A stretch of 64,000 nt of DNA from an uncultured Alphaproteobacteria bacterium (GTDB lineage: Bacteria; Pseudomonadota; Alphaproteobacteria; Rhizobiales; Afifellaceae): the NCBI GenBank assembly GCA_963805325.1, contig CAWDTS010000014.1:5544-69543 (forward strand). Direction: 5' to 3'. The notes under the pieces are model-generated. The model did not search any database. It saw only the letters and a program-made list of their open reading frames with translations, and was not told the DNA's origin. The stretch's first letter is position 1, and each line of letters begins with the position of its first letter. Shown one piece after another: positions 2,425 through 58,521 of this stretch. The position numbers and the translations under genes were made by a program.

Positions 2425-2931
2425 TTAGGCGTGGAATTCGTACCAGATACACGGCAGCGTGCGCCCGCCGAGCGTTTCGTCCGTTCGGGCAACGACCTTG
2501 CCGCCATGGTGCAGGTAGAAGTCGTTGGCGCGATCGTTGTCGGCGAGGGCGCGGATAAGGACGCGCGAATAGCCGCGCGCCTTGATGCGTTTCAGAACCG
2601 CCCGGAACAGCCTTATGCCGAGGCCGATGCCCTGATATTCGGGACGTAGATAAAGTTCCTGGACCTCCGCCGCGTTCGGATGGCCGCGGCTGTTCCCGGG
2701 CGCAAAGCTTGCATAGCCGGCGACGGTCCCGCCGACGTCGAGCACCAGAACCGGGCGACGCCCGAGGAGGTCGCGCCACCACGGGCTGCTGCGCCGCACG
2801 ATCATGCGCTCCAGCGTGACGGCCGGGATGATTCCGGAATAGGCCTCGCGCCATGCGACCGCGTGCGTGTCGGCAAGCTGGATTGCGTCCGAGGGGCGGG
2901 CAGGGCGGACATCGATGACGAGCGCGGTCAT
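2425..2931 (-). CDS. GNAT family N-acetyltransferase
   Basis: The sequence ...ELYLRPEYQGIGLGIRLFRAVLKRIKARGYSRVLI... is an acetyl-CoA binding Q/RxxGxG motif. Length 168 aa. Confidence 0.8.
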   Translation of the reverse strand: MTALVIDVRPARPSDAIQLADTHAVAWREAYSGIIPAVTLERMIVRRSSPWWRDLLGRRPVLVLDVGGTVAGYASFAPGNSRGHPNAAEVQELYLRPEYQGIGLGIRLFRAVLKRIKARGYSRVLIRALADNDRANDFYLHHGGKVVARTDETLGGRTLPCIWYEFHA

Positions 2932-3041
2932 GATGAGATGCTACGCTCACTTTTGGAGGCGAGCCAAGTGGAAACGCAAAATTTGAAATCTTCGGAAATT
3001 TACGGCGCGGAAGTTGCGTCCCGGTCACGCCGTCGCCGCGA

Positions 3042-4269: not shown

Positions 4270-4385
4270 GCGTTTCGCCGGCTTGCTCACGGTCAAGTGA
4301 AGTGCCGATTGAAACTCGGTTAAAACCCGGAGGCTCCTGGCTCCGTAGCTCCTCTCGTCGACACAGACGTTAGGAGATCATCGAC

Positions 4386-4964
4386 ATGTTCAAATTGACC
4401 AATCTTGCCCGCACCACGCTCGTTGCATCGGCCGTCGGACTTGCTTCTGCCCTCGCCATGTCACCGGCAATCGCAGAGGAGCCGGTCATCGTCGGCGGCG
4501 CGGCGATGTACGCCCAGAAGAATATCATCGAGAACGCCGTCAACTCGAAGGACCACACGACGCTGGTCGCGGCAGTGAAGGCCGCCGGTCTCGTCGACAC
4601 GCTGTCAGGCCCGGGTCCTTTCACGGTCTTCGCGCCGACCAACGCGGCCTTTGACAAGCTGCCGCCGGGAACGGTGGAAGATCTTCTGAAGCCGGAGAAC
4701 AAGGACACACTGACGCACATCCTCACGTACCATGTCGTCCCGGCCAAGGCGACGTCGGAGGCCGCCATGAAGATGATCAAGGACGACGGCGGCGAGCATA
4801 AGGTGAAGACCGTTTCCGGCGACACGCTCACCCTCAAGATGGACGGTGATCATCTCGTCGTCATCGACGAGATGGGCAACACCGCCACCGTGACTCAGGC
4901 CGACGTCATGCAGTCGAACGGCGTGATCCATGTCATCGACACGGTGCTGATGCCGAAGATGTAG
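4386..4964 (+). CDS. secreted fasciclin (FAS1) domain protein
   Basis: It has a signal peptide (..SALAMSPAIA/EEP) and FAS1 motifs TVFAPTNAAFDKLP, LTYHVVPAK and GVIHVIDTVLMP. GGAGA is 6 nt upstream of the ATG. Confidence 0.85.
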   Translation: MFKLTNLARTTLVASAVGLASALAMSPAIAEEPVIVGGAAMYAQKNIIENAVNSKDHTTLVAAVKAAGLVDTLSGPGPFTVFAPTNAAFDKLPPGTVEDLLKPENKDTLTHILTYHVVPAKATSEAAMKMIKDDGGEHKVKTVSGDTLTLKMDGDHLVVIDEMGNTATVTQADVMQSNGVIHVIDTVLMPKM

Positions 4965-4987
4965 TCGTCACTTTCCGACATGAGACG

Positions 4988-5010
4988 GGCGGCCGGAAGT
5001 TCCGGCCGCC
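4988..5010. terminator. GC-rich hairpin between convergent genes
   Basis: GGCGGCCGGA-agt-TCCGGCCGCC is a perfect 10-bp stem. It lies between the fasciclin stop (4964) and the anti-sigma stop (5020). Confidence 0.5.
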
Positions 5011-5019
5011 TCGTCGCGT

Positions 5020-5715
5020 CTATTCGATCGGGATCAGGCGGCCGGTATAGACGACAGGACCGGTGGCGACGCCGGTCGGCGATCCTCCCTCCGGCTCCAC
5101 GGTCACGGCGATGATGCCGTTGACCGGACCCTTTCCGAGGGCGTCGCGGATCGTCTGTGCGCTCGCGCCGGCCTGAAGAATCCCGAGCGACTTCGCATTC
5201 TGCCCCTCGGGGATGTGCCAGAGCTCGAGGCTGTGTCCGCTGGGTACCTGGGCGGTGACGCTGCGCACGATGATCGTGCCGCTTGCCGTGTCGACCTCGG
5301 CGATCAGCGCCGGCTCGCGCCCACCGGAATCGACCACGGCGACATAGCGCCCCGTTTCGGGGGGCAGCGTCGAGAGCCGGTCGAGCACGACGACGACCGC
5401 TAGCCCCGCGGCGAGGGCGCCGAGCGCTGCTGCAGTGGTTTTCCAGGCCGTGATGCGTCGCCGCAGGGTCACAACATTCGGCGCCGCAGTCGAAGCGCCA
5501 CTGGCGATGGCCCGCTCGACCTTTGACCAGAGGCCGGCCGGCGGCGCGATTTCAGGGCTCGCTTCCGCCAGCGGGGAGAGCTTCTCTTCCCATTGCGCAA
5601 CGGCTTCCTGAAGCTCGGAATCGCTGGCGAGCCGGCGCGCGAAGGCATCCCGCTCCGGGCCGGAGAGGGTTCCCAGCACATACTCGGCAGCAGCGCGTTC
5701 GAGCTCCTCGTTCAT
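5020..5715 (-). CDS. anti-sigma factor, RskA (anti-sigma-K) like
   Basis: The N-terminal MNEELERAAAEYVLGTLSGPERDAFARRL is zinc-finger-less anti-sigma-like. It has one TM helix (AAALGALAAGLAVVVVL). The C-terminal LELWHIP.G...SLGIL...IAVTVEPEGGSPTGVATGPVV is typical of the RskA extracytoplasmic domain. Its ATG at 5715 overlaps the sigma stop (ATGA). Confidence 0.75.
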   Translation of the reverse strand: MNEELERAAAEYVLGTLSGPERDAFARRLASDSELQEAVAQWEEKLSPLAEASPEIAPPAGLWSKVERAIASGASTAAPNVVTLRRRITAWKTTAAALGALAAGLAVVVVLDRLSTLPPETGRYVAVVDSGGREPALIAEVDTASGTIIVRSVTAQVPSGHSLELWHIPEGQNAKSLGILQAGASAQTIRDALGKGPVNGIIAVTVEPEGGSPTGVATGPVVYTGRLIPIE

Positions 5716-6366: not shown

Positions 6367-7653
6367 CTATTCTGAAGCGGCGTAGATCTCCACGGGCTCC
6401 GCAACGCCACGGAAGCTGAAGTTGCCGAGAGGGTCGAGGGGCGTGTCGAGAAGCTCTGCGACGCGCTCGGTAAGCAGCAGCCGGCGGCCGGTTTCTTTCG
6501 CCAGCGGTTCCACGCGCGCGGCGAGGTTCACGGCCGGGCCGGTGGCGGTGAAATCCAGCCGGTCCGCCGAGCCGATGTTGCCGTAAAAGACAGGGCCGCG
6601 ATGCAGCGCAATCCCGGTATTGAGCGGCCGCCAGTCCCCGTTGATTGCAAGCAAGTCGCCGGCCTCGCCGTTCAGAGCGCGGATCGCGCCAAGACCGGCA
6701 CGCGCTGCCGAGAGCGCTGCCGCCGCAGCGTCGCGTGCGGAGGTCGTCGAACCGATCGGGAAGATCGCGAGCATCCCGTCGCCGATGAACTTCAGGACCT
6801 CTCCACCGTGATTGCTCACCGCCTCGACGAGGCCCTCGAAGTAGGCATTCATGACGCGGATCACGTCGGGACCGGGAAGACGGTCGGAGAGACCCGTATA
6901 GTCGCGCATGTCGGACACCCAGATGACCGCATCGATCATCTCGCCCGATCCGCGCCTGATCTCGCCGGCGAGTACGCGCCCGCCGCTCCGCTCGCCGAGA
7001 TAGGCGGTGAGCACATTCTCGGCGATGCGGCCGAGTGCGATCAGATCGAGATTGAGGGCCAGCGCCGGGATGAGAGCCTGCAAGGCCGCGAGGTCGCCCG
7101 CCTTGAAGCCGCCGCGGCCGCGGGTGGCCACCGTCATCGCACTGTGGAAACTGCGCGCGTGCGGGATCGGGAACGCCCAATAGTCGGTGATCCCGTCTGC
7201 TGCGAACGCGGCCATCATCGGAAACTGCATCGCCGTGTCCGGGTCCTGCGGATTGAGGCGGATGGCCGTTCGTTCGTCGATGACGGGGCGCAGGGGACTG
7301 AGCTTGAAATCGCTCGTCTCGCGTATATGCACGTTCACCTTAAGCTCGCTGCAGAATCCCTGCTTCGGGTTCCAGTTGGCCGTGAAGCCAAGGACCTGGG
7401 GATGCAGCGTCCCGATGTGGAATGTGGCGCGGTCGAAAAGGAAGCCTGCTGCGACGAGCCGCGACATGAGGCCGTCCATCAACTCGCAGAGCCCGGCGGC
7501 GCTCGCATCGCCGGAGAGGAGCCAGTCCAGCGGTGCGCCGTCGGTCTCGACGGGATTCGTCACCGGAATCCGGCGGACGAGCTGCATATCCCGAGGAAAT
7601 TCGGACTCGCGAGGCAGCGGGGCGGCTTGCGGAACGGGAGCGGAGAGGGACAT
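6367..7653 (-). CDS. class III adenylate/guanylate cyclase with an N-terminal domain of unknown type
   Basis: The C-terminal CYC domain reads VIWVSDMRDYTGLSD...KFIGDGMLAIFP...GIALHRGPVFYGNIGSADRLDFTATGPAVNLAARVE. ATG at 7653 is preferred over TTG at 7707, which abuts the typA stop. Confidence 0.8.
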   Translation of the reverse strand: MSLSAPVPQAAPLPRESEFPRDMQLVRRIPVTNPVETDGAPLDWLLSGDASAAGLCELMDGLMSRLVAAGFLFDRATFHIGTLHPQVLGFTANWNPKQGFCSELKVNVHIRETSDFKLSPLRPVIDERTAIRLNPQDPDTAMQFPMMAAFAADGITDYWAFPIPHARSFHSAMTVATRGRGGFKAGDLAALQALIPALALNLDLIALGRIAENVLTAYLGERSGGRVLAGEIRRGSGEMIDAVIWVSDMRDYTGLSDRLPGPDVIRVMNAYFEGLVEAVSNHGGEVLKFIGDGMLAIFPIGSTTSARDAAAAALSAARAGLGAIRALNGEAGDLLAINGDWRPLNTGIALHRGPVFYGNIGSADRLDFTATGPAVNLAARVEPLAKETGRRLLLTERVAELLDTPLDPLGNFSFRGVAEPVEIYAASE

Positions 7654-7708
7654 CGGACCGCCAGATTTTTCCGTGCCCGTAGATGGGCGCGTCGATCTGC
7701 CCTTCAAG

Positions 7709-9535
7709 TTACGCCGCGCTGGCCGCTTTGGCGCGGCTGGCGCGCTTGCGGTCGTTCGGATCGAGAATCACCTTGCGAAGCCGGATCGATTTCGGCGTCA
7801 CCTCCACCAGCTCGTCCTCCTGGATATAGGAGAGCGCGCGTTCGAGGCTGAGCTTCATCGGGGGCGTTAGGATCGTCGCCTCGTCCTTGCCGGAGGCGCG
7901 GACGTTGGTGAGCTGCTTTCCCTTCATGACGTTGATCTCGAGATCGTTGCCGCGCGTGTGCTCTCCGACGATCATGCCGCGATAGACGCGCATCCCCGGC
8001 TCGATCATCATCGGCCCGCGGTCCTGCAGGTTGAAGATCGCGTAGGCGACGGCTTCGCCCTGCGAATTGGAGAGAAGCACGCCGGTGTGACGACCGGGAA
8101 TCTCGCCGCGGAACGGTTCCCATGCATGGAAGATGCGGTTCATGATCGCGGTGCCGCGCGTGTCCGACAGAAGCTGCGGCTGGTAGCCGATCAGCCCGCG
8201 CGTCGGGATGTAGAAGCGCAGGCGCACGCGGCCGGCGCCCGAGGGACGCATCTCGACCAGCTCGCCCTTGCGACTCGACAGCGTCTCGATGACGATTCCG
8301 GAATGCTCCTCGTCCACGTCGATGATGACTTCCTCGATCGGTTCGAGCTTGACGCCGTTCTCCTCGCGAACGACGACGCGCGGCTTGCCGATGGTGAGCT
8401 CGAAACCTTCACGCCGCATCGTCTCGATCAGGATGCCGAGCTGCAATTCGCCGCGGCCTGCGACCTCGAAGGAATCCTTGTCCTCGCCCTCAGTGATCTT
8501 GAGCGCAACGTTGCCTTCCGCTTCGCGCAGGAGCCGGTCGCGGATGACGCGGCTTTGCACCTTGTCGCCCTCCTGTCCGGCGAGCGGCCCGTCGTTGATG
8601 CGAAAGGTCATGGCGAGTGTCGGCGGGTCGATTGGCTGCGCCGAAATCGGCGTCTCCACCGATGGATCGCATAGCGTGTCGGCGACGCTCGCCTCCTGAA
8701 GCCCGGCGATCGCGACGATGTCGCCCGCCTCGCCGGAGTCGATGCCGCGCCGCTCCAGTCCGCGGAAGGCAAGCACCTTGGAGATGCGAAAGGTCTCAAC
8801 CGTTTCGCCTTCGCGCGACAGCGCCTTGACGGTCTGCCCGGCTTTCACCGAGCCGGAACGGATGCGGCCGGTCAGGATGCGGCCCAGAAACGCGTCAGCC
8901 TCCAGCGTCGTCGCCAGCATGCGAAAGGGACCCGGCTCAGTGACCGGCGGCGCGACGTGCTCCAGCACCTTGTCGAGGAGCGGCGCGATGCCGTCCTTCG
9001 GGCCGTCCGGCGAGAGCGCCATCCAGCCCTGCTTGGCGGAACCGTAGAGGACGGGGAAATCGAGCTGCGCCTCGTTGGCGTCGAGCGCCGCAAAGAGATC
9101 GAAGACGGCGTTCAGCGTGACGTCAGGCTGCGCGTCCGGCCGGTCCACCTTGTTGACGACGACGATCGGCTTCAGCCCGATGGCGAGCGCCTTCATGAGC
9201 ACGAACTTGGTCTGCGGCATCGGCCCTTCGGCCGCATCGACGAGGAGAATCGCGCCGTCAACCATGTTCAGGATTCGCTCCACCTCGCCGCCGAAATCGG
9301 CGTGACCGGGCGTATCGACGATGTTGATGCGCGTGCCCTTCCACAGGAGCGAGGTCACCTTGGCGAGGATGGTGATGCCGCGCTCCTGCTCGAGCGCGTT
9401 GGAGTCCATGGCGCGTTCGGCCACCTTTTGGCCGGCCCGGAAGGTGCCGGAGGCGCCGAGAAGCACGTCGATCAGGGTCGTCTTGCCATGATCGACATGC
9501 GCGATGATGGCGACGTTGCGAAGGGTCGCGGGCAC
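7709..9535 (-). CDS. typA: translational GTPase TypA/BipA
   Basis: Motifs seen: [34 protein letters not shown]. The full-length 608-aa product has the EF-G-like domain order. Confidence 0.95.
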
Positions 9536-13611: not shown

Positions 13612-14855
13612 GCAAGCCGTTGATGAGCGAGGGGCGGCTCGCGGTGATTGGCGGGCTGCTTGTTGCGCTCGGTCCGATCTCGCTATCCCTCTACACCCCG
13701 GCGATGCCGCAGCTGGTGCACGTCTTCTCCACCGACGTCGCGACGATCAAGCTGACGCTCACCACCTATTTCGCGGGCTTCGCGCTGTCGCAGCTCGTCT
13801 GCGGCCCGCTTTCCGATGGCTTCGGCCGACGCCGGACGGCGCTCGGCTTCACCTTCATCTATCTCGTCGCTAGCGTCGTGGCGGCGAGCGCCCCTTCGGT
13901 CGAATGGCTGCTCGGCGCCCGCTTGGTGCAGGGTATAGGGGCAGCGGCGGGGGTTTCGGTCGCGCGCGCCATGGTGCGGGACCTGCACACCGGCGAAGCG
14001 TCGGTCCGCATCCTGAACATGATCGGCGTGTTGCTGGCGATCGGGCCGGCGGCGTCGCCGACCTTGGGCGGCATCGCTCTCGATCTCTTCGGCTGGCGGT
14101 CGATCTTCTTCTTCATGGTTGGCTACGGTGCGATTCTGACCATCGTTCTCCTGACGCTCACGCCGGAAACGCTGGCGCACCCGGATCCTTCGCGGCTGCG
14201 CCCGGCGCGCCTCGTCCGCAACTACGGGCGGCTTCTCGTCAGCCCGGCATTCCTCGGCCCGAGCCTCGTCTTCGGCTGTACCGCGGGCGGGCTCTACACG
14301 ATGGCGACGCTGCTTCCCTTCGTCATGATCGACGAGGTGGGGCTGACGCCGACGTTTTTCGGCTTCTCGATGATCATGCAGTCGGGCTCGTATCTCATCG
14401 GCGCCATCGTGATGCGGCGTCTTCTTCGTCGCTTCGAGGCGCATCGGATGGTGCCCTTCGGCATCCTGATGATGGTCATCGCCGGCGTGTTGCTGGCCAC
14501 TGGCTTGCGCCTTGCACCGCCGAGTTTCCTGAACGTGATGGGGCCGGTCGCGCTCTTCGCCTTCGGCATCGCCTTCATATCGCCCTCGATGCAGACGGCG
14601 GCGCTCGCGTATTTTCCCGACATCGCGGGATCGGCGGCGGCGATGATGGGCTTCTTCCAGATGGGCGGCGGGTTCCTCGGTTCCGCGGTGTCCGCGGCGA
14701 TCGGGCGGCCGGTCTTTTCTCTCGCGACGATCATCCCGACGATGATCGCCATCGCCGTCGTCGCACACTACGGCCTGCGCGCGCTGGCAGGCCCGCAGCG
14801 CATGCTCGACAGCGTAGCCGACCGGATCATCAAGCCAGAGGCGCCGGCGGAATAG
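13608..14855 (+). CDS. MFS transporter, Bcr/CflA drug-resistance subfamily
   Basis: Motifs seen: LSLYTPAMPQL, GPLSDGFGRRR (MFS motif A), LVQGIGAAAG. About 12 hydrophobic segments. Confidence 0.85.
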   Translation: MSKPLMSEGRLAVIGGLLVALGPISLSLYTPAMPQLVHVFSTDVATIKLTLTTYFAGFALSQLVCGPLSDGFGRRRTALGFTFIYLVASVVAASAPSVEWLLGARLVQGIGAAAGVSVARAMVRDLHTGEASVRILNMIGVLLAIGPAASPTLGGIALDLFGWRSIFFFMVGYGAILTIVLLTLTPETLAHPDPSRLRPARLVRNYGRLLVSPAFLGPSLVFGCTAGGLYTMATLLPFVMIDEVGLTPTFFGFSMIMQSGSYLIGAIVMRRLLRRFEAHRMVPFGILMMVIAGVLLATGLRLAPPSFLNVMGPVALFAFGIAFISPSMQTAALAYFPDIAGSAAAMMGFFQMGGGFLGSAVSAAIGRPVFSLATIIPTMIAIAVVAHYGLRALAGPQRMLDSVADRIIKPEAPAE

Positions 14856-45236: not shown

Positions 45237-45725
45237 TGGCGGAGATGTAGCGGGGATGGGGCGGGTGTCAAATGTCGGAGGCGATTTTGCCCGATGAACC
45301 GACTGGGCCGGATTCCTGCGACGAGAAGGTGATCGCGCAGCGCCCTGGAGCCGCGCGTTAATCGTGCGGTCGCCGCGGATATCTTCAACGCTCCACATCG
45401 AAAAGCTCTTCTTGTAAATCCGTGTTTCGTTCGCGTTGTGACAAGTTGACGGAAATAAAATGAGGGAAGAGAAGCAGAAGAAAACGAGTTGATCTTCCGT
45501 ACTGGAGGCGAATTTTATATCTTTTCGGCGCGTAATGGCGTAAGGTGCATTTTGCGTTCGGCTTGCGGTCTGCGTGAATTCCTGCCGGTCCGGTCTTGCC
45601 TGGCGCTCTTAGGATACATGCAGCGCGAATCCGGCACGTCATAACGCAGCGGCGCCGTCGCGTTGAGCTTTGCAGCGTGATCCCATGCTGCGCTCAGGCT
45701 GCCTTTCCCGAGGAGGGAAAATCGG

Positions 45726-45944
45726 ATGGCAATCAGTGGACTCGCGCGACGAAGCGGTGGGCTCGATATCGTGACGCATCATCTTCATGCGGCGCAGGCG
45801 AAGTGGGACCGGCTGACGGCCTCCGACTATGCAGCCGTCCGGACTGCGCGCGACCTGATCTCCTCTGTTCAGACCCGCTACAGCCTGACGCACGAACAGG
45901 CGAAGCGCGACGTCGAGCTTTGGCTGCAAGATGTCGGACGCTAG
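45726..45944 (+). CDS. small CsbD-like protein (divergent)
   Basis: 72 aa. KWDRLTASDYAAVRTARDLISSVQTRYSLTHEQAKRDVELWL parallels the CsbD pattern KWGKLTDDDL..I.G.RD.L.GKIQE.YG....EA..EV..W. GGAGGG is upstream. Confidence 0.45.
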   Translation: MAISGLARRSGGLDIVTHHLHAAQAKWDRLTASDYAAVRTARDLISSVQTRYSLTHEQAKRDVELWLQDVGR

Positions 45945-46254
45945 CCCTTCATCGATCCCGACTGCAGAGCGCGTTGCGCGCGAGAGCGTCACCTTCGCGA
46001 AGCCGTTCTTCGTCGAGGGCCTCGGCCGCGAACAGCCGGCCGGGACCTACAAGGTCGAGATCGTCGAAGAGCTGATCGAAGGCCTTTCGTTCCTCGCCTA
46101 TCGCGTCGTGTCGACGTCGATCGTGCTTCCGCTAGCGGGAGGCGGCGCGCATTCCTATCAGCACGTGCCGATCAATTCCGCACTGGTTCGCGCGGCATTG
46201 CGGAAGGACAGCGGCGGGCGGCAGCCGCTGCACTATTCGAGCGTGCAGGATTGA
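45931..46254 (+). CDS. hypothetical protein (107 aa)
   Basis: It overlaps the previous ORF by 14 nt. The composition is protein-like (FFVEGLGREQPAGTYKVEIVEELIEGLSFLAYRVV). No family recognised. Confidence 0.45.
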   Translation: MSDASPSSIPTAERVARESVTFAKPFFVEGLGREQPAGTYKVEIVEELIEGLSFLAYRVVSTSIVLPLAGGGAHSYQHVPINSALVRAALRKDSGGRQPLHYSSVQD

Positions 46255-46309
46255 TGCCGCGAGGTCGTAGGCGCTTCGGCGCGCACGCCATGCCCTTCTG
46301 CAGGCGTCG

Positions 46310-46651
46310 ATGACGAATCGGACGATCGAGCTCGACAAGCATCGCGGAATGGCGGCGCAGAAAGCGACCGAGCTGCGGCGGCTGGTGGGCGAGGTCGCCG
46401 CCGACCGCGCGAACCTCAAGGCGCGACAGGACGAGCTTGAAAAGCACCTGGTGGCGGCGCCGGCCACGACCTGGCCCGACGTCGCGGCGAAGACGCGCTA
46501 CCTTCTCTCGCTTTTCTCCGCCACGTCGGAAGCCCAGGACCCGCGCCGCAAGACGCTCATCGCCAATCTCCTCGACGACTTCGAGCGACTCATCGGCGAC
46601 TCAGATTCCGATTCTGACGACCCGCAGACGCCGGCGGACGGCGAAGAGTGA
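46310..46651 (+). CDS. hypothetical coiled-coil protein with acidic tail (113 aa)
   Basis: It has a heptad-like N-terminal half and a DSDSDSDDPQTPADGEE tail. No family recognised. Confidence 0.4.
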   Translation: MTNRTIELDKHRGMAAQKATELRRLVGEVAADRANLKARQDELEKHLVAAPATTWPDVAAKTRYLLSLFSATSEAQDPRRKTLIANLLDDFERLIGDSDSDSDDPQTPADGEE

Positions 46652-46764
46652 TCGCGCCGACGGGAAATTCCGTACGAGGCTCGGGCCAAATCCAGATCGG
46701 CGCGCGTTTCTCTTAATCAAAGGATATCGCAGCGCTTTTCCTGAATTCTTGGCCCGACATCGGG

Positions 46765-46906
46765 TCAGTATTTGAGCGCTGCCTGGATCATAATCAGTAT
46801 TTATGTTTGCCTAATTTATAATAAAGGCGCACAGTATTACTGTCGGATATCCCTATTGGCTTCGAAACCGAATGCGGGCCCGTATCGATCCCGATTTTAT
46901 TCGAAA
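46765..46906. repeat. AT-rich control region with repeated CAGTATT and TTCGAAA motifs
   Basis: TCAGTATTT occurs at 46765-73 and 46794-802. The palindrome ACAGTA-t-TACTGT lies at 46831-43. TTCGAAA occurs at 46861-67 and 46900-06. All lie in the roughly 150 bp upstream of the ATG at 46924. Confidence 0.6.
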
Positions 46907-46923
46907 TAGAGGGAGAGATACCC

Positions 46924-47265
46924 ATGACATTCAGCGAACGCATTGAGGCGAGCAAGCCTTACCTGGCGGGCATCGTTATCGGGCTCATCGCCGCGCCGAT
47001 CATCGGCTTCAGCGCCGGATGGGTTTCAACGACCGGGGCGCGCACAGAGGCGGTCCAGAACGCCCGCGTCGAGACGCTGGCCAGCGTCTGCTCGGCGACG
47101 GCTGAGAAGATGGCGGCTGCCGATGCCACGGATCTTGCGACGATCAAGGGCTACGAGAATCGCGCCAAGCGCGAGGCGCTGGTCGCCGCAGCGATGGGCG
47201 ACATGCAGACGCCGGACGCGCTTGTGAGGCAGGTCACCAACAGCTGCAATCGCACGCTGGCGTAA
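46924..47265 (+). CDS. membrane-anchored hypothetical protein (113 aa)
   Basis: GAGGGAGAG is upstream. It has one N-terminal TM helix (YLAGIVIGLIAAPIIGFSAGWV). No family recognised. Confidence 0.5.
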   Translation: MTFSERIEASKPYLAGIVIGLIAAPIIGFSAGWVSTTGARTEAVQNARVETLASVCSATAEKMAAADATDLATIKGYENRAKREALVAAAMGDMQTPDALVRQVTNSCNRTLA

Positions 47266-47323
47266 AGCAGGCGGCGGAAGGGAGCGCCGCTGAGGCGCTC
47301 CAGGGCGAACAGGAGGCGCGCTG

Positions 47324-47533
47324 CTATTCCAGCGCGCCGCGGATTTCCTTGAGAGCGCCGAGGATCTGCTGGGGCGTGACCTTGGCGATGTCCTCCGGCG
47401 CCGGACGGATGTCTTCAGGGAGCACGGCCGCGAAGAGGGTCGGCCCGTAGCGTAGCGCGCCGAGCAGCAGCAGGGCGCTGAACATCATCCACAGGAGCGT
47501 GCGGGAAAGAACTGAGAGCGCGGCGCGCAGCAT
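47324..47533 (-). CDS. small membrane protein (69 aa), downstream of dapF on the same strand
   Basis: It has a single hydrophobic helix (TLLWMMFSALLLLGAL) and a charged tail. The call is tentative. Confidence 0.35.
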   Translation of the reverse strand: MLRAALSVLSRTLLWMMFSALLLLGALRYGPTLFAAVLPEDIRPAPEDIAKVTPQQILGALKEIRGALE

Positions 47534-47769
47534 GGATATGCTCCATCAGACTGCGGCCTCCTCGCGGATATGTCTAAAGCATTGGGCGCAAAGGGCAAGG
47601 GGAGCCGGCGCCTCGACGCTGCCGTGTTCCGGATGAGGTGCGCGCAGGCTACCGCGAACCCTCTCCTGGACCACACCCCCTCTCGCTGCCGTCGGCGTTG
47701 TTGGTCGTTTCGCGACCTCTCCCAGAGCTTGCGGAACGCAAGCTCTCCGCCTTCCCCATATGGTCGAGA

Positions 47770-48959: not shown

Positions 48960-49748
48960 TTGGCGCTCATTCTTTTCGTCGCGGCGCCTGCATCCGCGGC
49001 GGAAATGCTCGATCTTTACCAGGCGCGGCCGATCGTGACGGGGACGGGCGAGACGAACCGCGCGATCGGGTTCGCCCTGGCGCTGGAAGAGGTGCTGATC
49101 AAGGTTTCGGGCGACGCACGGCTGCTCGGCGATCCGCGGCTCAAGACGATCGACGCCGGCGCGCTCGTCGCGTCTTTCACCTATCGCGACCGCATGGAGG
49201 GCATCCCGCTCCACGACGAGCAGGGCTCGCACGACCGGCCGCATGATCTGACCGTCACCTTCGATCACGACAAGATCGACGCGGCGTTAGCCTCGCTTGG
49301 CGACGCGCCGTGGACCGCGCCGCGCCCGACGCTCGTCATGTTTCTCGGCGTGACCAATGGCGATCGCCGCTTCGTGCTCTCGGCGGAAAACGAGCGCGGC
49401 ATCGACATGCGCGCGTCGCTCGACAACGCCACGTTCCGCGTCAACATCCCGGTGAAAGAGCCGAGCGACGCGGCGCTGGCGGCTGCGGGGCTTACCGTCG
49501 CGACGCTGCCCGATGCCGACCTTGAGACGCTCGACAGGCTGGCGAAGGAGGCGGGAGGCGACAAGGCTATTGCTGGCACGCTCGACTTTTCCGATCAGGC
49601 GCATGGTTGGCTCGTGCATTGGCGGATGCGCGGGGCGGACGGGAAAACCTATGAATGGCGGCAGGCGGGAGTCAGCTTCGACGACGCCTTCCGCAACGCC
49701 GTGCGCGGCGCGGCGCAGGTGCTTTCCGGGCACGGCCAGCCTGAATGA
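48960..49748 (+). CDS. secreted DUF2066-like protein (start uncertain)
   Basis: Evidence: ..LYQARPIVTGTGETNRAIGFALALEEVLIKVSGD.., as in DUF2066 proteins. The only in-frame start is TTG at 48960, which gives a very short signal n-region. Confidence 0.5.
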   Translation: MALILFVAAPASAAEMLDLYQARPIVTGTGETNRAIGFALALEEVLIKVSGDARLLGDPRLKTIDAGALVASFTYRDRMEGIPLHDEQGSHDRPHDLTVTFDHDKIDAALASLGDAPWTAPRPTLVMFLGVTNGDRRFVLSAENERGIDMRASLDNATFRVNIPVKEPSDAALAAAGLTVATLPDADLETLDRLAKEAGGDKAIAGTLDFSDQAHGWLVHWRMRGADGKTYEWRQAGVSFDDAFRNAVRGAAQVLSGHGQPE

Positions 49749-49758
49749 GCCGAAAAGG

Positions 49759-51273
49759 CTAAAGCTCGCAGACGACGCGCATCCCGACGCGCCCCTGCCA
49801 GCCGACGGAGTCGCTGCGCATCGCGTCGCGGTAGGCTGAGCGGCAGATAGCGGCGTTGTGCGACCAGGCGCCGCCGCGCAGAACATGATCGCCGCCGGGC
49901 CCGACATAGGGCGCGCCGTCCTTCGGGATCAGGCGATACTCGGCGAGCGCGGTGTCGAGGCAATGCTCCCAGACGTTGCCATGCATCTGGAAGAGGCCGA
50001 AGCGGTTCGGCGGATAGGCGCGCGCCGGCATCGTCCCGTTCTTGAAGCCGCCGATCGGCCCACGGTCATAGGCGCCGCGCGGAAAGGCCATGTTGTTGTA
50101 CACGTCGCTCGATATGTCCTCGCCCCGGTCCATGCCGCAGACGGCGCCGCCGGTGCCGCAATAGTTGGCGAGATCCGAGGTCAGCGTCGGTCCGAAATGA
50201 AACGGCGTCGTGGTGCGGGCGCGGCAGGCGTATTCCCATTCCGCCTCGCTCGGCAGCCGGCAGCGGAACCCAGTCACCTTCGACAGGCGGCGGCAGAACT
50301 CCGTCGCGTGATTCCAGCTGATCGTCTCGACCGGCAGATCGTCGCCGCGGAAGAAAGACGGGTAGGGCGCAAGCGTCTGTCCGCCGGTCTCCTCCACCCG
50401 GTTGACCACCGCGGCCCATTGGCCTTGCGTGATCGCGGTGCGGGTCATCGCGAATTCCTTGAGCTCGACGAACTCCTGCGGGCCCTCGTTCGACCGCCGT
50501 TGCGGCTCGTGCTCGGGCGAGCCAATCTGGAATCCGCCGGCCGGAACAATGGAGAATTCGAGCGACGTGGTGTCGTTCAGCGGCGCGTCGAAGACGTCAA
50601 TCGTCTGCGGCTGCGAAGGCTGCTCGTCGCCGGTGTCGTCGACGGTGACGAGATCGAATTTTTCCGCGTGCGGCGCCGGAACGCCGCGGCGCAGCCGCGC
50701 CGGCATGTCGAACATCATCATCGCAGCAGCGGATGCGACGCCCACTCCAGCGACGCCGAGCCCGAGCTGCAGGAGTCGGCGTCGCGGTATCGAGGTCCGC
50801 AACGGAGCGGCGGGCGCCGTCGCCGGAGCGACCGCGATCGGCACGCGAGCAGCGCCCGCGTCTGTGGGGATCGGCGCGGCGCCGTCGCGCACGAGACGCC
50901 TGACGCCGGCCAAGAATTGCACGGCGCGATGATCTTCGGCGTCGCCGGACCAGTTGGAGAAGTCGGGCGTCTGATATTGCCGAAAGCCGAGCGGCGGCGT
51001 GACGCCGTCAAGGCTTAGCGGAACGAGGATGCCGCGGTCACGGCCCGCCGCCGCTTCGTCGCATACCCAAACGGCGTTGACGGAGCTTGCCGACCACGCG
51101 ACGACCACGCAGCGCGCCGTCTCGATCTCGCGATGAATGACGAGACCGAAGCGCTCTCCCGCGACGAGCGTCGGGTCCCACCAGACGGAGAAGCCCTCGC
51201 GCTCAAGCAGGCGCACCAAGGGCTCTACGCGCGCGCGATCCTCGCGCTTGTAGCTGACAAATATCTCGGCCAT
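49759..51273 (-). CDS. TIR domain / single TM / FGE-sulfatase (SUMF1-like) domain protein
   Basis: aa 1-130 form a TIR_2-like domain (EIFVSYKREDR, CVVVAWSASSVNAVWVCDEAAAG with Glu73). aa 166-188 form a TM helix preceded by RRR. aa 235-504 are FGE-sulfatase-like (ISWNHATEFCRRLS, LPSEAEWEYACRA, NRFGLFQMHGNVWEHCLD, HVLRGGAWSHNAAICRSAYR). The 504-aa ORF is intact. Confidence 0.8.
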   Translation of the reverse strand: MAEIFVSYKREDRARVEPLVRLLEREGFSVWWDPTLVAGERFGLVIHREIETARCVVVAWSASSVNAVWVCDEAAAGRDRGILVPLSLDGVTPPLGFRQYQTPDFSNWSGDAEDHRAVQFLAGVRRLVRDGAAPIPTDAGAARVPIAVAPATAPAAPLRTSIPRRRLLQLGLGVAGVGVASAAAMMMFDMPARLRRGVPAPHAEKFDLVTVDDTGDEQPSQPQTIDVFDAPLNDTTSLEFSIVPAGGFQIGSPEHEPQRRSNEGPQEFVELKEFAMTRTAITQGQWAAVVNRVEETGGQTLAPYPSFFRGDDLPVETISWNHATEFCRRLSKVTGFRCRLPSEAEWEYACRARTTTPFHFGPTLTSDLANYCGTGGAVCGMDRGEDISSDVYNNMAFPRGAYDRGPIGGFKNGTMPARAYPPNRFGLFQMHGNVWEHCLDTALAEYRLIPKDGAPYVGPGGDHVLRGGAWSHNAAICRSAYRDAMRSDSVGWQGRVGMRVVCEL

Positions 51274-51365
51274 GCCCAGTCGGAGCCAATCCGAAGTCGA
51301 CGCGGGAAGGATAGATCAGGGCGAGGGGAGGCGCGCAAGTTTCGGGAGCAGACGCGGGGCCGTCG

Positions 51366-51762
51366 CTCAATTCATTCCGCCGCCTCCGCTACCGCCGCCC
51401 CATGCCGCCACCAGTGCCACTACTGTTCATGCCGCCGGTATCGCCGCCGGTATTACCGCTCCCGGAGGAGCTGCTGCCGCGGGTGGACGCCGGAGTCGTC
51501 GGTCGTGCCGGGTGCTTGCGGGGGTTGTTTGCCGGTCGACAAGCTTCGCGGTGGCGGGTTGCCGTGCGCCGTTCTTCGGACAGGCCCAAAGCGACTGGCC
51601 GCCGAACTTCTGGAGGCCGCACCAGGGATCGGGGCGCGGAACGTCTTCGCCGCTCGGCGTGGTCGTGTAGTAGTAGCGCACGTTCTCGTCGCTTTGTGCA
51701 AAGGACTGACCGGCGCCGGCCGATAACACGCAAAGCGCGAATGCCAAGAGACGTGCCTGCAT
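51366..51762 (-). pseudogene. small secreted protein with Gly/Ser-rich tail, frame uncertain
   Basis: It has a signal peptide (MQARLLAFALCVLSAGAGQSFA/QS) and a Cys pair (WCGLQKFGGQSLWACP). The Gly-rich tail (GSSSSGSGNTGGDTGGMNSSGTGGGMG.., ..GGGSGGGGMN*) appears only in the other two frames, implying one or two frame changes near 51400-51560. Confidence 0.3.
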
Positions 51763-51863
51763 GAGCTCCTCGCGAGAGCGATACCCCTAAGAATCTCGCA
51801 GCTTCCGAATGTGTTGTCCACCCGGCGAAAGGGTCACACGCCGCGCGCGTTCGTTCGCCGACT

Positions 51864-53066
51864 CTACTCCGCGGGCTGCGGGGCGAGGCGGCGGCGGCCG
51901 AGCGTCAGCCGCGCGAGCACGAAAGCCCCAACCGCGCAGGCGGCGATCGTCGACACCATCGGCAGCGCCGTGCCGTCGAAGAAAACGCTGACAACGACGA
52001 TCATCAGTGCGCCGGTCAGCATCTGCAACGTGCCGCCGAGTGCGGCGGCCATGCCGGCGATCGGCCCGTGCGCGTCGAGCGCCAGCACCATGGTCGTGGG
52101 GATGACGAGACCGAGGAAGGCGAAGGAGCAGAAGAGCATCACGATAAGGACGCCGAGACTATCGGCGCCGGCCAGCGTCACGATGAAGAGCGCGACGGCG
52201 ACTGTCGTGTAGCAGGTCACTGCCGTGGTCACGACGCGCCCCATCCCGAAGCGGCCGCCGAGCTTTGCCGCAAACTGCGAGGAGCCGATAAAGCCGACTG
52301 CGTTCACCGAGAAAGCGAGGCTGTACTGGGTCGGCGTCAATCCGAAATGGTCGATGTAGATGAAGGAGGACGAGGCCAGGAAGGAGAAGAAGCTCGACAT
52401 GCCGAGGCCGGCGATGAAGGTGAGCCCCAGGAAATGCCAGTCGCGGAAGAGCGTACCAAAGCCCGCCGCGAGACTGGCGACGCTGATCCGCACGCGGTCC
52501 TTCGGAAGCCGCGTCTCCGGCTGGAAGAGCGCCAGCAGGACAAGGCCCAGAAGCGCGGCAATCGTCACCGCCACGAAGACCGCGCGCCAGCCGAAAGGCA
52601 CGATCAGCGCGCTTCCAGTCAGCGGCGCGAGGATCGGCGAGACGGAGAAGACGAGCATCATCAGCGCCATCAGGCGCGTCGCCTCGACGCCGGTGTGCAT
52701 GTCGCGCACGATGGCGCGCGGGATCACCATCACCGAGGATGCGCCGATACCCTGCAGCGTGCGGAACGCGATCAGCCAGCCGATCGACGGCGACAGCGCG
52801 CAGCCGATCGAGCCGAGGGCGAACAGCGCCAGCCCGAAATAGAGCGGCGGCTTGCGCCCGACCATGTCGGAGAGCGGGCCATAGACGATCTGGCAGACGC
52901 CGAAGGTCAGGAAGAAGACCATCAGCGTCATCTGCGTCGCGGCCGTCGACGCGCCGAGGCTCTCGGAGATCGTCGGCAGCGCCGGCAGATACATGTCGAT
53001 CGCGAACGGGCCAACGGCGGCGAGAAGGCCGAGCACAATCGCGCTCTTGGCGAAGCTTGCACGCAT
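51864..53066 (-). CDS. MFS transporter, Bcr/CflA subfamily
   Basis: Evidence: FAIDMYLPALPTI, GPLSDMVGRKPP, LQGIGASS, and 12 hydrophobic segments. It is a paralogue of 13608..14855. Confidence 0.85.
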   Translation of the reverse strand: MRASFAKSAIVLGLLAAVGPFAIDMYLPALPTISESLGASTAATQMTLMVFFLTFGVCQIVYGPLSDMVGRKPPLYFGLALFALGSIGCALSPSIGWLIAFRTLQGIGASSVMVIPRAIVRDMHTGVEATRLMALMMLVFSVSPILAPLTGSALIVPFGWRAVFVAVTIAALLGLVLLALFQPETRLPKDRVRISVASLAAGFGTLFRDWHFLGLTFIAGLGMSSFFSFLASSSFIYIDHFGLTPTQYSLAFSVNAVGFIGSSQFAAKLGGRFGMGRVVTTAVTCYTTVAVALFIVTLAGADSLGVLIVMLFCSFAFLGLVIPTTMVLALDAHGPIAGMAAALGGTLQMLTGALMIVVVSVFFDGTALPMVSTIAACAVGAFVLARLTLGRRRLAPQPAE

Positions 53067-53459
53067 TTATTCGGCTTTCAGAGGTTCGGGCCCTGGGAGG
53101 CGGACGCGCGTTTTCGCGCAATCCACGGAAAGGATCAAGCCGCGCACGGATTGCGCCGACAGACTACTGACAATTGGCCCTCGGGTGGCGTGATCTGCTT
53201 CAGAAAGAGGCGCATTCATGCCGAATTCTCCGCCAGAGGAACCGCCGGTCAATGTCGAAACGACCGCTTTCATCCCTTCGTCGATCCGCGGCGCTCCGAA
53301 TCGACAGGGGCGCGATTTTTCTTTTCCGGAGGCGTTTCTGCTTGAGCCGGTTCGCCACGGGTGGAACTCCGGCGCTTCAGCCGGTTTAATCATGCAACAA
53401 CCGGACTCGATGGCTTTTTGACCGAAGACCCAGCGGACACGATCAAGCGCAAGCACGAA

Positions 53460-55250
53460 ATGCCCTTCAGCGCCGCGGTAACGCGACGCGGGCGTGCGGT
53501 TTCGACTGTGGGCGCCGAATCACGCGCGCGTCGGCCTGAGGATCGAGGGCGACGAGCAGGGTGCGCCCGATGCGGCGGGAGGGCGAGCTGGCACACGCTT
53601 CAGACCGATGCGGCGCGGGCCGGCTCTCTCTATCGCTTCGTGCTCTCCGACGGCATGGCGATCCCCGATCCCGCCTCGCGCTTTCAGCCTCAGGACGTGC
53701 ATGGCCCGAGCGAGGTGATCGACCCCACGGCCTACGAGTGGCGCGATCGGAATTGGCGCGGCCGGCCGTGGGAGGAGGCGGTGCTCTACGAACTGCACGT
53801 CGGCGCCTTCACACAGGACGGAACATTTCGGGCAGCGATCGACAGGCTCGACGCTCTCGTCGAGCTCGGCGTCACCGCAATCGAGCTGATGCCGCTCGCG
53901 GATTTTCCAGGCAGATGGAACTGGGGCTATGACGGCGTGCAGCTCTTCGCGCCGGATTCAAGCTACGGACGGCCGGAGGACCTGAAGGCGCTCGTCGACG
54001 CCGCGCATCTGCGCGGGCTGATGGTCTTTCTCGATGTCGTCTACAACCACTTCGGCCCCGAGGGGAATTACTGGCCGGTCTGCGGGCCGATCTTCACGGA
54101 GCGTCATCACACGCCCTGGGGCGCAGCGATGAATTTCGACACCGAAGGCTCGGACGTCGTGCGCGAGCTGGTCGTCACGAATGCGCTCTACTGGATCGAA
54201 GAGTATCACCTGGACGGGCTGCGGCTCGACGCCGTCCACGCCATCCTCGACGACAGTCCTCAGCATATTCTCGACGAGATCGCGCTTCGTGTGCGTGCTG
54301 CCGCCGGCGAGCGTCATGTGCATTTGACTCTTGAGAACGAGGAGAATCATTCCGCGCGGCTGAAGCGCAGTCCAGACGGCACGCCGCTCGAATACACCGC
54401 GCAGTGGAATGATGACCTGCATCATGTGCTTCACACGGCGGTGACGGGGGAGAGCGCCAGCTATTATGGGCCTTATGCGGGCGACACGGAGAAGCTCGGC
54501 CGCGCGCTCGCGCAGGGTTTCGCGTTCCAGGGCGAGGTGATGGCGCATCGCGGCAAGGCGCGCGGCCAGCCGAGCGCCGGCCTTCCGCCTACCGCCTTCG
54601 TCGGCTTCGTCCAGAATCATGATCAGGTCGGCAACCGCGCCTTCGGCGAGCGGCTGACATCGCTCGCGCCGAAGGAGGCGCTTCGGGCGATCATCGCGAT
54701 CTATCTGCTGTCGCCGCAGATACCGATGCTCTTCATGGGGGAGGAATGGGGCTCGACGCGGCCCTTCCAGTTCTTCTGCGACTTCGAGCCAGGGCTCGCC
54801 GAGGCGGTCCGCAACGGCCGCCGGCAGGAGTTCGCGCGGTTCCCCGCGTTCCAGGACCCGGCGACGCGCGAGCGCATTCCTGACCCGACCGCCGAGGCGA
54901 CCTTTCTTGCCTCGAAGCTCGATTGGGAGGATGCAGGAGACGGTGCGCACGCAGAATGGCGGGACTTCTATGCCAGGGTGCTCGCGGTGCGCCGCCAGGA
55001 GATCGTGCCGAGACTTTTCGGTACAGCCGGGCACGCGGGACACTACACCGTGCTGGGCCACGAGGCGGTCGGCGTCGAATGGCGTCTCGGCGACCGCTCG
55101 ATGCTGACCCTTCTCGCCAATCTGTCTGACAAGCCGATCCCGCTCGCGGGCCCGGCGGCGGGGAGGGTGATCTGGGAGGAGGGGGTGGCGACCGGCGAGA
55201 GTCTTGCGCCTTGGACCGCTCTTTTCACGCTGATCGATGGAGTTTCTTGA
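53460..55250 (+). pseudogene. treZ: malto-oligosyltrehalose trehalohydrolase TreZ, three single-base frame changes near the 5' end
   Basis: The catalytic part is intact (GYDGVQLFAPDSSYGRPEDLKALVDAAHLRGLMVFLDVVYNHFGPEGNY, GLRLDAVH, ENEEN, VQNHDQVGNR). The N-terminus reads MPFSAAVTRRG in frame 0, VRFRLWAPNHARVGLRIEGDEQ in frame 1, VRPMRREGE in frame 2, then WHTLQTDAARAGSLYRF back in frame 0. The switches are at about 53490-93, 53559-61 and 53586-90. Confidence 0.85.
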
Positions 55251-58008
<2,758 letters not shown>

Positions 58009-58012
<4 letters not shown>

Positions 58013-58521
58013 GCGGCTTTCACGATCGCGGCGGAGACCGGCGGCGCGCTGCGCAGCGTCTGCAGCACGACGCAATAGCGCTCGGTGAGCTTCAGGAGCT
58101 GGTCGAGCTTCTCCCTGGGCGCGTCGGTCTCGACGTCGAAGGCAAGGCGGATGTCGCGGAAGCCGACCGGCGCCTCGCGGTCGACGGCGAGCGTGCCGCG
58201 GAAGTCGAGGTCGCCCTCGGCGCGGACATGCGCGCTCTTCAGCTCGACGCCGATGGCGGTCGCGACGGCCTTCAGCGTCACGCCGGCGCAGGCGACGAGC
58301 GCCTCAAGCAGCATGTCGCCGGAGCAGGCTTCCATACCCGTGCCGCCGGTCGCCGGATGCAGGCCGGCGGTGACGAGCGCGCGGCCCGTCTCCACCTTGC
58401 AGGCGATCTTGGCCTCGTCGATCGACCCTTCGGCCTTCAGCGTGATGACGGCGGCGTCGGGGTCGCCCTTGTACTTTTCCTTCAGCGGCGCCTGCGTGGC
58501 GCGGAGGGTTTCGGCGTCCAT
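58009..58521 (-). CDS. OsmC/Ohr family peroxiredoxin-like protein
   Basis: It has two conserved Cys contexts (GMEACSGDMLLEALVACAG and TERYCVVLQTL), as in OsmC. 170 aa. Confidence 0.8.

Follow-up and report, generated by a model that had tools for sequence, protein, structure and literature searches.

We analysed a 64,000-nt stretch of contig CAWDTS010000014.1 (hereafter the window, meaning the whole stretch) from an uncultured alphaproteobacterium of the Afifellaceae. On its reverse strand lies a gene for a 504-residue protein that joins an N-terminal TIR domain to a C-terminal domain of the FGE-sulfatase superfamily, named after the formylglycine-generating enzyme (FGE). Directly upstream is a small gene for a secreted protein that recurs beside close relatives of the TIR–FGE gene. 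We describe the two genes, the family to which they belong and the candidate receptor–effector module that they may form at the bacterial envelope.

A TIR domain and an FGE-like domain on one polypeptide

An earlier note on this DNA, made by a model from the letters and a list of reading frames, had called a single intact open reading frame (ORF) here and assigned TIR_2 and FGE-sulfatase domains to its product. Translation recovers the same ATG-initiated frame, and in profile searches both domains match Pfam far above the respective cutoffs (Table 1). Along the protein the parts follow in the order TIR domain, tether, putative twin-arginine signal-anchor, β-hairpin and FGE-like domain.

An AlphaFold2 model, for which 85 homologues served as input, has a mean predicted local distance difference test score (pLDDT) of 80.9. 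It is confident for the TIR domain (residues 1–130) and for the β-hairpin plus FGE-like domain (200–504), and drops below 50 across residues 134–183, which take in most of the tether and of the membrane segment. Within the TIR part, strands at 4–7, 55–60 and 83–87 alternate with helices at 10–25, 42–52 and 68–79 at a pLDDT of about 90, and the model presents this part as a flavodoxin-like fold, confident through residue 130. The short all-β pre-domain ahead of the FGE fold is modelled with strands at 202–208, 221–231 and 237–243. Compared with the Protein Data Bank (PDB) by Foldseek, the model matched PvdO (5hha, E=1.4e-16), the variable protein TvpA of a diversity-generating retroelement (DGR; 2y3c) and bacterial and human FGEs (about 1e-11); the best matches by fold and by sequence, to PvdO and the FGEs, span residues 238–500.

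The gene has the same GC content as its flanks (0.68), and tblastn found no paralogue of it elsewhere in the window. A promoter and terminator scan of positions 49400–52100 returned none, a scan that is uninformative at 68% GC.

Table 1. Positions in the window of the TIR–FGE gene, its parts, the upstream partner gene and the convergent neighbour
Feature	Coordinates	Strand	Basis
TIR–FGE ORF, 504 aa	49759..51273	-	Single intact ATG reading frame; full-length homologues at 47-66% identity
TIR_2 domain, aa 4-113	50935..51264	-	Pfam PF13676, E=3.1e-19, 70.1 bits vs cutoff 28
Glu73 codon, predicted catalytic glutamate (VWVCDE)	51055..51057	-	Alignment to WCLDEL of RUN1/RPV1; conservation
Helix aa 115-130, then Pro/Ala-rich tether aa 131-163	50785..50934	-	Low pLDDT, low identity
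Twin arginine R164-R165 in [S/T]-R-R-x-x-L	50779..50784	-	Invariant in clade
Gly/Ala-rich hydrophobic segment aa 166-188, predicted membrane span and Tat-type h-region	50710..50778	-	Kyte–Doolittle
All-β pre-domain aa 200-241 (FDLVTVD...IDVFD), N-terminal to FGE fold	50551..50676	-	AlphaFold2 strands, pLDDT >90
FGE-sulfatase-like (C-type-lectin fold) domain aa 242-501, predicted periplasmic sensor	49771..50550	-	Pfam PF03781, E=6.9e-41, 141 bits vs cutoff 23.3
His472 (49858-49860) through Cys477 (49843-49845)	49843..49860	-	Alignment to S. coelicolor FGE
Partner gene: Sec-type signal peptide, Cys loop (PDPWC...SLWACP), Gly/Ser/Met-rich tail	51389..51762	-	Directly upstream, apparent 1-nt frameshift
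DUF2066 gene, convergent, ending 10 bp from the TIR–FGE stop codon	48960-49748	+	DUF2066 E=3.6e-29

A secreted partner encoded directly upstream

The earlier note had imagined a one-gene device, a view that we abandon, as a conserved secreted Gly/Met-rich protein is encoded directly upstream. The N-terminal ORF of this partner (51427–51762) specifies a Sec-type signal peptide and a Cys loop, VRYYYTTTPSGEDVPRPDPWCGLQKFGGQSLWACP. Its tail (51389–51520), which reads ...GSSSSGSGNTGGDTGGMNSSGTGGGMGRR before the stop and ends at 51389, lies in another frame than the N-terminal part (51520–51762), and this implies a 1-nt indel near 51500–51530, where a run of five C residues sits (about 51524–51528). 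The frameshift is most likely an assembly error of the metagenome-assembled contig, and it may alternatively be a real disruption.

Homologous small genes, with a Gly/Ser/Met-rich tail (...GGGMDGGGGGGMD), lie upstream of the orthologues at loci L001 and L002 and upstream of a Rhizobium gene (L089) that encodes a caspase, a transmembrane segment and an FGE-like domain. In the alignment of these partners (A3), residues Y30, G38, P44, C48, G54, L58, W59, C61 and P62 are invariant. A permuted form accompanies a second clade of TIR proteins (L005, L087, L088 and L092) and another caspase gene (L171, in divergent orientation); here the signal peptide is followed by GGM-type repeats, such as five copies of GGMNGGMTA, and the Cys loop comes at the C-terminus. 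The partner thus adjoins the sensor cassette at 9 of the 11 clade loci that have upstream sequence, namely the window and the eight loci just named. It is absent at all seven membrane-less TIR–FGE loci, and an automated screen that placed it at 7 of 12 close-clade loci (with three more recognised by eye only) found it beside none of 175 other FGE-encoding ORFs in the loci examined. The protein matched no Pfam family and is rarely called as a gene; a word-indexed homologue search returned three matches.

Partner subtype tracks the clade of the sensor cassette and not the type of effector. The caspase cassette at L171 is 68–70% identical to those of the second TIR clade, and the two TIR clades are about 51% identical to each other. 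Such tracking would be expected of a partner and an ectodomain that interact, and we regard the partner as probably a ligand, a co-sensor or a guarded bait of the ectodomain in the periplasm. A Cu-binding role for the Gly/Met-rich protein was also considered, given that Cu(I) is bound by Met-rich motifs and that FGE itself is a Cu enzyme. Nothing besides composition was found to speak for it, and it stays speculation.

As a separate observation, the near-identical loci L005 and L006 differ at about 7400–7970, where L005 has a 143-aa Gly/Met-rich ORF and L006 a 64-aa ORF on the opposite strand, with no partner in the screen; the difference may be an indel in low-complexity repeats.

One sensor cassette, several effectors

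The TIR–FGE architecture is very common and defines a widespread family. With a threshold of E<=1e-5, a search for homologues brought up 7313 proteins, and among the best 120 of these, 85 combine TIR_2 with FGE and 14 combine Peptidase_C14 (caspase) with FGE, with single cases of CHAT, a MinD-like ATPase and a Ser/Thr kinase in the effector position. The remainder were listed as FGE-only, and most of the 13 such sequences that were read are fragments of TIR–FGE proteins. Source annotations label the relatives 'formylglycine-generating enzyme…' or, at NCBI, 'SUMF1/EgtB/PvdO family nonheme iron enzyme'.

Caspase, CHAT and MinD-like domains are found joined to sensor cassettes 50–70% identical to that of the window, and the all-β pre-domain is kept irrespective of the N-terminal effector. 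By these comparisons, the sensor is a mobile cassette that takes different effectors in turn. The alignments likewise point to purifying selection of equal strength on the TIR and FGE domains (mean pairwise identity 68% and 66%), with the tether (19%) left free. Searching representative proteins with residues 150–245 gave eight matches, which are not a census. A search for related loci in genome and metagenome contigs yielded, among the matches listed, mostly cyanobacterial and generic FGE genes with few close relatives, and these served as negative controls and as a source of TIR–FGE proteins that have no membrane segment.

Such membrane-less TIR–FGE proteins occur in Thiothrix, Adonisia and Accumulibacter, and a kinase–FGE protein of Trichodesmium is also without the segment. 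The membrane-anchored version is therefore one clade of a broader family. Inside that clade, a gene for Pepco (PF24393) lies directly downstream of both caspase–FGE genes that have the partner (8139–8546 at L089 and 4743–5123 at L171). By gene neighbourhood, these Pepco genes tie cassette and partner to a pore-forming death effector that has been characterised experimentally.

Two relatives are built differently. On the contig of P0032 (JGI 3300041965), a 205-aa TIR_2 gene (2251–2868) overlaps by 4 nt the start of a gene for a MinD-like ATPase joined through a transmembrane segment to an FGE-like domain (2865–4994), an arrangement that puts TIR effector and sensor on two separate polypeptides. 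In a metagenome-assembled genome of Candidatus Accumulibacter affinis (L075, 3829–7890), a 1353-aa protein is encoded directly upstream of a membrane-less TIR–FGE gene; read by eye, it appears to have a MinD/ParA-like N-terminus as in P0032, a TIR-like stretch, a transmembrane helix and a C-terminal FGE-like part, and it would be a giant member of this modular family.

An invariant histidine in place of the first FGE cysteine

True FGEs have two catalytic Cu-binding cysteines (C336 and C341 in the human enzyme). In the HMMER alignment to the S. coelicolor FGE, LRGGAWSHNAAICRSAYR stands opposite LRGGSYLCHDSYCN-RYR, which puts His472 at the site of the first catalytic cysteine and Cys477 at that of the second; the earlier note's observation that one of the two cysteines is kept is thereby borne out. 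His472 is present in 85/85 clade homologues and Cys477 in 84/85, and W470, S471, R478 and R482 are likewise invariant or nearly so, whereas membrane-less relatives have Asp, Cys, Tyr or Thr at the position of His472. Because an invariant histidine replaces the first catalytic cysteine, the protein is not a formylglycine-generating enzyme; on the alignment, it belongs to the superfamily but lacks the trait by which true FGEs are defined.

Several cysteines show signs of pairing. C477 and C438 are lost together in membrane-less relatives (seven sequences), which suggests that they form a structural pair. C372 and C379, which sit in a clade-specific insert (about 40 residues, aa 370–412, and Cys-containing), are restricted to the membrane clade, and C327 covaries with C502; as a set, these features are missing from most membrane-less relatives. 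PvdO is similar in being a periplasmic FGE-fold protein without the FGE catalytic Cys pair. It differs in having neither of the residues found here at the two sites (His472/Cys477, against Cys/Cys in FGE), the insert at 370–412 is extra to the window protein, and the checked neighbours of the window gene offer no pyoverdine context. Orthology to PvdO, EgtB, SenA, GldK/PorK or OvoA was rejected, as the NCBIfam equivalog models scored well under their cutoffs (PvdO 121.5 vs 500; GldK 56.9 vs 350; EgtB 46 vs 360; SenA 38.9 vs 420).

We consider that the FGE-like domain probably acts as a ligand-binding sensor. It might instead be a periplasmic metal-dependent oxidase, built around His472, Cys477 and Cys438, that modifies the partner peptide or another envelope substrate, with the TIR domain regulatory or secondary. 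The constancy of His472, Cys477 and the four residues around them does resemble an active or binding site, relatives in the FGE superfamily are Cu or Fe enzymes that work on sulfur, the partner has a conserved Cys-Pro and many Met residues, and NCBI's nonheme-iron label on the relatives points the same way. However, the FGE Cys pair is incomplete, every enzyme equivalog model stays far under its cutoff, the partner has no CxPxR motif of the kind that FGE targets, and C477 covaries with C438 as a member of a structural pair would. The fusion of the same cassette to death effectors, including a caspase with Pepco, also suits a sensor better than a maturation enzyme. On balance, we think the oxidase unlikely.

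A TIR domain that keeps its glutamate

The W-x-x-x-E glutamate that the earlier note had picked out survives closer comparison. Translation places Glu73 in VWVCDE as had been read, and in a phmmer search of PDB sequences the stretch ...SVNAVWVCDEA pairs with ...SRWCLDEL in RUN1 and RPV1, two TIR NADases of grapevine, setting Glu73 on their conserved glutamate, the established catalytic residue of TIR NADases. The PDB matches are individually weak (E=0.05–0.8), yet consistent over AbTir, RUN1 and SARM1. A glutamate occupies the position in 84/85 full-length homologues and in six of seven membrane-less TIR–FGE proteins, the seventh having Asp. We predict from this conservation that the TIR domain cleaves NAD+ or produces a signal molecule. 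TIR NADases are generally activated by self-association.

Adaptor TIRs, in contrast, can do without the catalytic glutamate. If the TIR domain here were such a non-enzymatic adaptor, the protein could be an envelope-stress or cell–cell signalling receptor of core physiology with no role in suicide or defence. Vertical inheritance in a housekeeping setting with conserved synteny would sit well with that proposal, as would the lack of defence genes nearby, the weak PADLOC matches (both described below) and a sensor that is conserved and not diversifying. What makes it distinctly unlikely in our judgement is the near-universal retention of a glutamate that adaptors can dispense with, together with the interchange of TIR with caspase, CHAT and Pepco-linked modules on one and the same sensor; the gene also diverges faster than its neighbour DapF (66% vs 86% identity, for an inferred pairing of genomes).

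A putative internal twin-arginine signal-anchor

The segment RLLQLGLGVAGVGVASAAAMMMF is the sole hydrophobic stretch of the protein, and its 19-residue Kyte–Doolittle mean peaks at 1.86. R164-R165-R166 stand ahead of it, and a basic c-region, ARLRR, comes after it. In an alignment of 85 TIR–FGE homologues (overall identity 40–69%), the twin arginine is invariant, and it is equally so in 17/17 caspase-, CHAT- and MinD–FGE relatives, giving 102/102 in all. Ser or Thr precedes it in 76/85 of the TIR–FGE homologues and Leu follows at +3 in 75/85. The 20–23 residues after the twin arginine are Gly/Ala-rich in the relatives and of moderate hydropathy (1.1–2.0 on the Kyte–Doolittle scale), and the h-region ends in Pro and a basic cluster (consensus AAPxIRR; MPARLRR in the window protein). 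Signal peptides of the twin-arginine translocation (Tat) pathway have these same traits: an invariant Arg pair with no swap to Lys, a weak h-region and a basic c-region. Curated Tat models matched excised segments repeatedly, if marginally: the TAT_signal model TIGR01409 scored 19.1 bits for homologue P0055 (cutoff 16.7), 15.8 for the caspase protein P0035, 14.5 for the CHAT protein P0039 and 10.9 for P0003; PF10518 gave 9.5–16.1 bits on four homologue segments.

The TIR–FGE protein has no N-terminal signal peptide, and with a single span this would put the TIR domain in the cytoplasm and the FGE-like domain outside. The clade-specific Cys pairs and the secreted partner lend independent support to this N-in/C-out topology, which we hold with good confidence. 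The single pass proposed in the earlier note, with the TIR domain in the cytoplasm and the FGE-like domain across the membrane from it, is accordingly still the best reading, given the signal-anchor, the Cys pairs and the Sec-secreted partner. That the FGE-like domain is exported by Tat is a prediction towards which we lean slightly.

In the remaining arrangement, neither domain would leave the cytoplasm: the hydrophobic stretch would serve as a linker, or as an anchor of peripheral or re-entrant type, and an intracellular ligand would be sensed. The membrane-less TIR–FGE proteins of Thiothrix, Adonisia and Accumulibacter and the cytoplasmic FGE-like sensors of STAND receptors are precedents for it, and an ambiguous charge balance and low AlphaFold2 confidence at the segment would be compatible with it. 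We nevertheless rate this very unlikely: 102/102 clade members combine a hydrophobic segment of 22–23 residues with the invariant Arg pair, the partner with its signal peptide is restricted to the membrane clade, and so are the extra Cys pairs.

Internal Tat signals that follow other transmembrane helices are known from actinobacterial Rieske proteins (Keller et al. 2012, PMC3471235). Those Tat-anchored Fe-S proteins resemble the window protein in their [S/T]-R-R-x-hydrophobic motif, in a weak h-region that is kept as an anchor and in a folded C-terminal domain on the outside. They differ in that the putative Tat signal here (aa 163–190) comes after a folded cytoplasmic domain of about 130 residues, and not at the N-terminus or after other transmembrane helices. 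We found no description of an internal Tat signal following a folded soluble domain in the literature searched.

Genomic context

The earlier note placed the gene among unrelated housekeeping genes. That description fits the checked neighbours, which lie within about 6 kb on either side and encode a MiaB/RimO-like radical-SAM (S-adenosylmethionine) protein, DapF, the DUF2066 protein, a major facilitator superfamily (MFS) transporter and two alpha-amylase-family proteins; it does not extend to the conserved partner directly upstream. The DUF2066 gene is indeed the close convergent neighbour that had been reported. The relative at L001 has the order amylase, amylase, MFS, small gene, TIR–FGE, ..., DapF, ..., MiaB. 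DapF of the window is 86% identical to P0144, against 66% for the TIR–FGE protein, where P0144 and P0122, a close relative of the L001 TIR–FGE protein, are paired as products of a common genome by inference; if the pairing is correct, the module has passed down vertically in that lineage and changes faster than the genes around it. Among named organisms, the nearest relatives of the window's DapF are those of Faunimonas and Propylenella, both of the order Hyphomicrobiales. Other loci contain unrelated housekeeping genes, with occasional toxin–antitoxin genes, transposases and an integrase.

PADLOC returned as its best match a SAVED-TIR model (E=2e-7), followed by ThsB models at E=0.04–0.06, all confined to the TIR part. 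Membership in a defined system, be it Thoeris through ThsB, another PADLOC system, a DGR-diversified FGS receptor or a vWA–MoxR (VMAP/iSTAND) ternary conflict system, can be set aside as extremely improbable even though the TIR part weakly matches ThsB, SAVED-TIR and ThcB4 models and FGS domains do occur in such systems, since the scores fall far under the cutoffs (ThcB4 16.4 bits vs 220), no ThsA, vWA, MoxR or STAND gene is present among the domain-checked neighbours (all housekeeping, with the same content at the syntenic L001), and the 64-kb window has no template/variable repeat that corresponds to the gene's 3' end, the C-terminus being highly conserved.

Relation to described systems

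A sensor role in conflict systems and STAND receptors has been proposed for FGS/FGE domains, FGS denoting the FGE-sulfatase-like domain of C-type-lectin fold (PMC7159879, PMC10907252, PMC13581612), and in the described fusions the effectors, among them TIR, caspase and kinase domains, always lie N-terminal to FGS (Kaur, Burroughs, Iyer and Aravind 2020, PMC7159879; Dore et al. 2024, PMC10907252). Fusions of a metacaspase to an FGE-sulfatase domain were catalogued in 2012, one of them with transmembrane helices between both domains (PMC3501461). As FGE sensors fused to TIR or caspase domains have already been described computationally, the protein in the window does not found a new category. 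It has in common with the FGS fusions a C-terminal FGE-like domain, an N-terminal effector, an all-β extension and a proposed non-enzymatic role in binding or sensing. It departs from them in having no vWA, MoxR, STAND or DGR context, a conserved and not a hypervariable sensor, a putative twin-arginine signal-anchor between effector and sensor, and a dedicated secreted partner, of which we found no mention in PMC7159879 or PMC10907252. In the literature searched, we found no description of the signal-anchor and partner and no experimental work on any TIR–FGE protein, in agreement with the earlier note's impression that the architecture has yet to receive a dedicated experimental study.

Experiments have shown Pepco to act as a death effector that forms pores once a protease has activated it, and Pepco proteases fused to FGE sensors have been reported (Evans et al. 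2025 preprint, PMC12642450); the pair tested in that work was Avs4–Pepco and not the FGE-sensor version. The closest non-TIR relatives of the cassette are of this caspase/trypsin–Pepco type, as caspase–FGE genes that have both Pepco and the partner (L089 and L171). The window locus differs in having a TIR effector in the same polypeptide as the sensor, with no Pepco and no protease.

The Toll-like-receptor-style layout suggested in the earlier note holds as an analogy. Like Toll-like and IL-1 receptors, the protein would have a single pass, an extracytoplasmic ligand-binding domain and a cytoplasmic TIR domain, and activation by induced proximity would be a shared principle. The two are not homologous as receptors: order and orientation are reversed, with the TIR domain N-terminal and an N-in/C-out topology, the ectodomain is an unrelated FGE-like domain in place of leucine-rich repeats or immunoglobulin domains, and the enzymatic glutamate is kept. 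With bacterial TIR effectors such as AbTir, ThsB, TIR-SAVED, TIR-STING and SpbK, the protein shares a TIR_2-type domain with a conserved catalytic glutamate, but it has a membrane-tethered FGE-like ectodomain where they have a cytoplasmic nucleotide- or protein-binding sensor, and no partner effector gene.

A candidate receptor–effector module at the envelope

We propose that the two genes encode a receptor–effector module consisting of a bitopic inner-membrane protein and its secreted partner, an account that we favour with some reserve. The TIR domain with Glu73 would face the cytoplasm and lead through an unconstrained tether of about 35 residues into the internal twin-arginine-type signal-anchor. 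The anchor would set the β-hairpin and FGE-like domain in the periplasm, probably exported in folded form via Tat. There the ectodomain may bind or monitor the Sec-secreted Cys-loop/Gly-Met-rich partner, or a ligand presented together with it. A change in the state of ligand or partner would cluster the ectodomains; because the tether is flexible and unconstrained, a change of oligomeric state is the only plausible signal across the membrane. The TIR domains would then self-associate and consume NAD+ or make a signal nucleotide, and the outcome could be growth arrest or death, either as abortive infection or as suicide upon envelope damage.

A more specific version, which we offer tentatively and consider possible but doubtful, casts the two proteins as an immune-type receptor pair. 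The Tat-exported ectodomain would guard the partner, which might be a bait, an autocrine ligand or a redox- or metal-sensitive reporter of envelope integrity, and would cluster to activate a TIR NADase, with the same cassette driving caspase–Pepco modules elsewhere.

Several observations weigh against the proposed module. The sensor is conserved and not hypervariable, and for such a sensor a phage ligand is no better a match than a conserved ligand of the cell itself or its envelope. His472, which is invariant, might yet make up a metal or catalytic site with Cys477 and Cys438. The gene sits in a conserved housekeeping context, shared with its 66%-identical relative at L001, with no recognisable defence island, and PADLOC reaches the TIR part alone, and weakly. 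At the membrane, the twin-arginine segment of the window protein itself matches neither Tat model (TIGR01409 or PF10518), the positive-inside rule by itself gives no clear orientation (+3 ahead of the segment, +3/-1 after it) and the segment is modelled by AlphaFold2 with low confidence. The partner gene, finally, is apparently frameshifted in the window; its counterpart is missing at the Pseudonocardia locus L004 and was not found at L091.

We know of no demonstration in bacteria of immune sensing from periplasm to cytoplasm by induced proximity; to our knowledge, the bacterial TIR, caspase and STAND immune sensors that have been characterised detect their triggers inside the cell. If our model is true, bacteria would be capable of outside-in signalling in the style of Toll-like receptors, and the locus would provide a tractable two-gene system in which to find the stimulus sensed at the envelope. 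Should the internal twin-arginine signal-anchor prove real, the known range of Tat biology would grow to include proteins whose folded N-terminal domain stays in the cytoplasm. Given that the cassette is common to TIR, caspase–Pepco, CHAT and MinD-like modules, the identity of its ligand would also give an annotation to thousands of proteins that at present go under the label 'SUMF1/EgtB/PvdO family nonheme iron enzyme'.

Other features of the window

The two alpha-amylase-family genes are consecutive on the forward strand (53361–58088) and encode proteins of 629 and 945 aa, the first with DUF3459; their synteny is kept at L001, and they are probably genes of trehalose or glycogen metabolism. 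A 103-nt inverted repeat, 74% complementary, links positions 13893–13995 and 52688–52790. Its second arm falls inside the MFS gene (51864–53066), and the repeat suggests that the opposite strand has a paralogous transporter gene at around 13.9 kb. In both the window (45385–47600) and L001 (13764–16923), runs of small ORFs that match no Pfam family lie between the genes for DapF and the MiaB-like protein, with a GC content of 0.61, below that of the flanks. The sole Rfam match of the window is a tRNA on the reverse strand at 742–814 (62.6 bits), far from the TIR–FGE gene.

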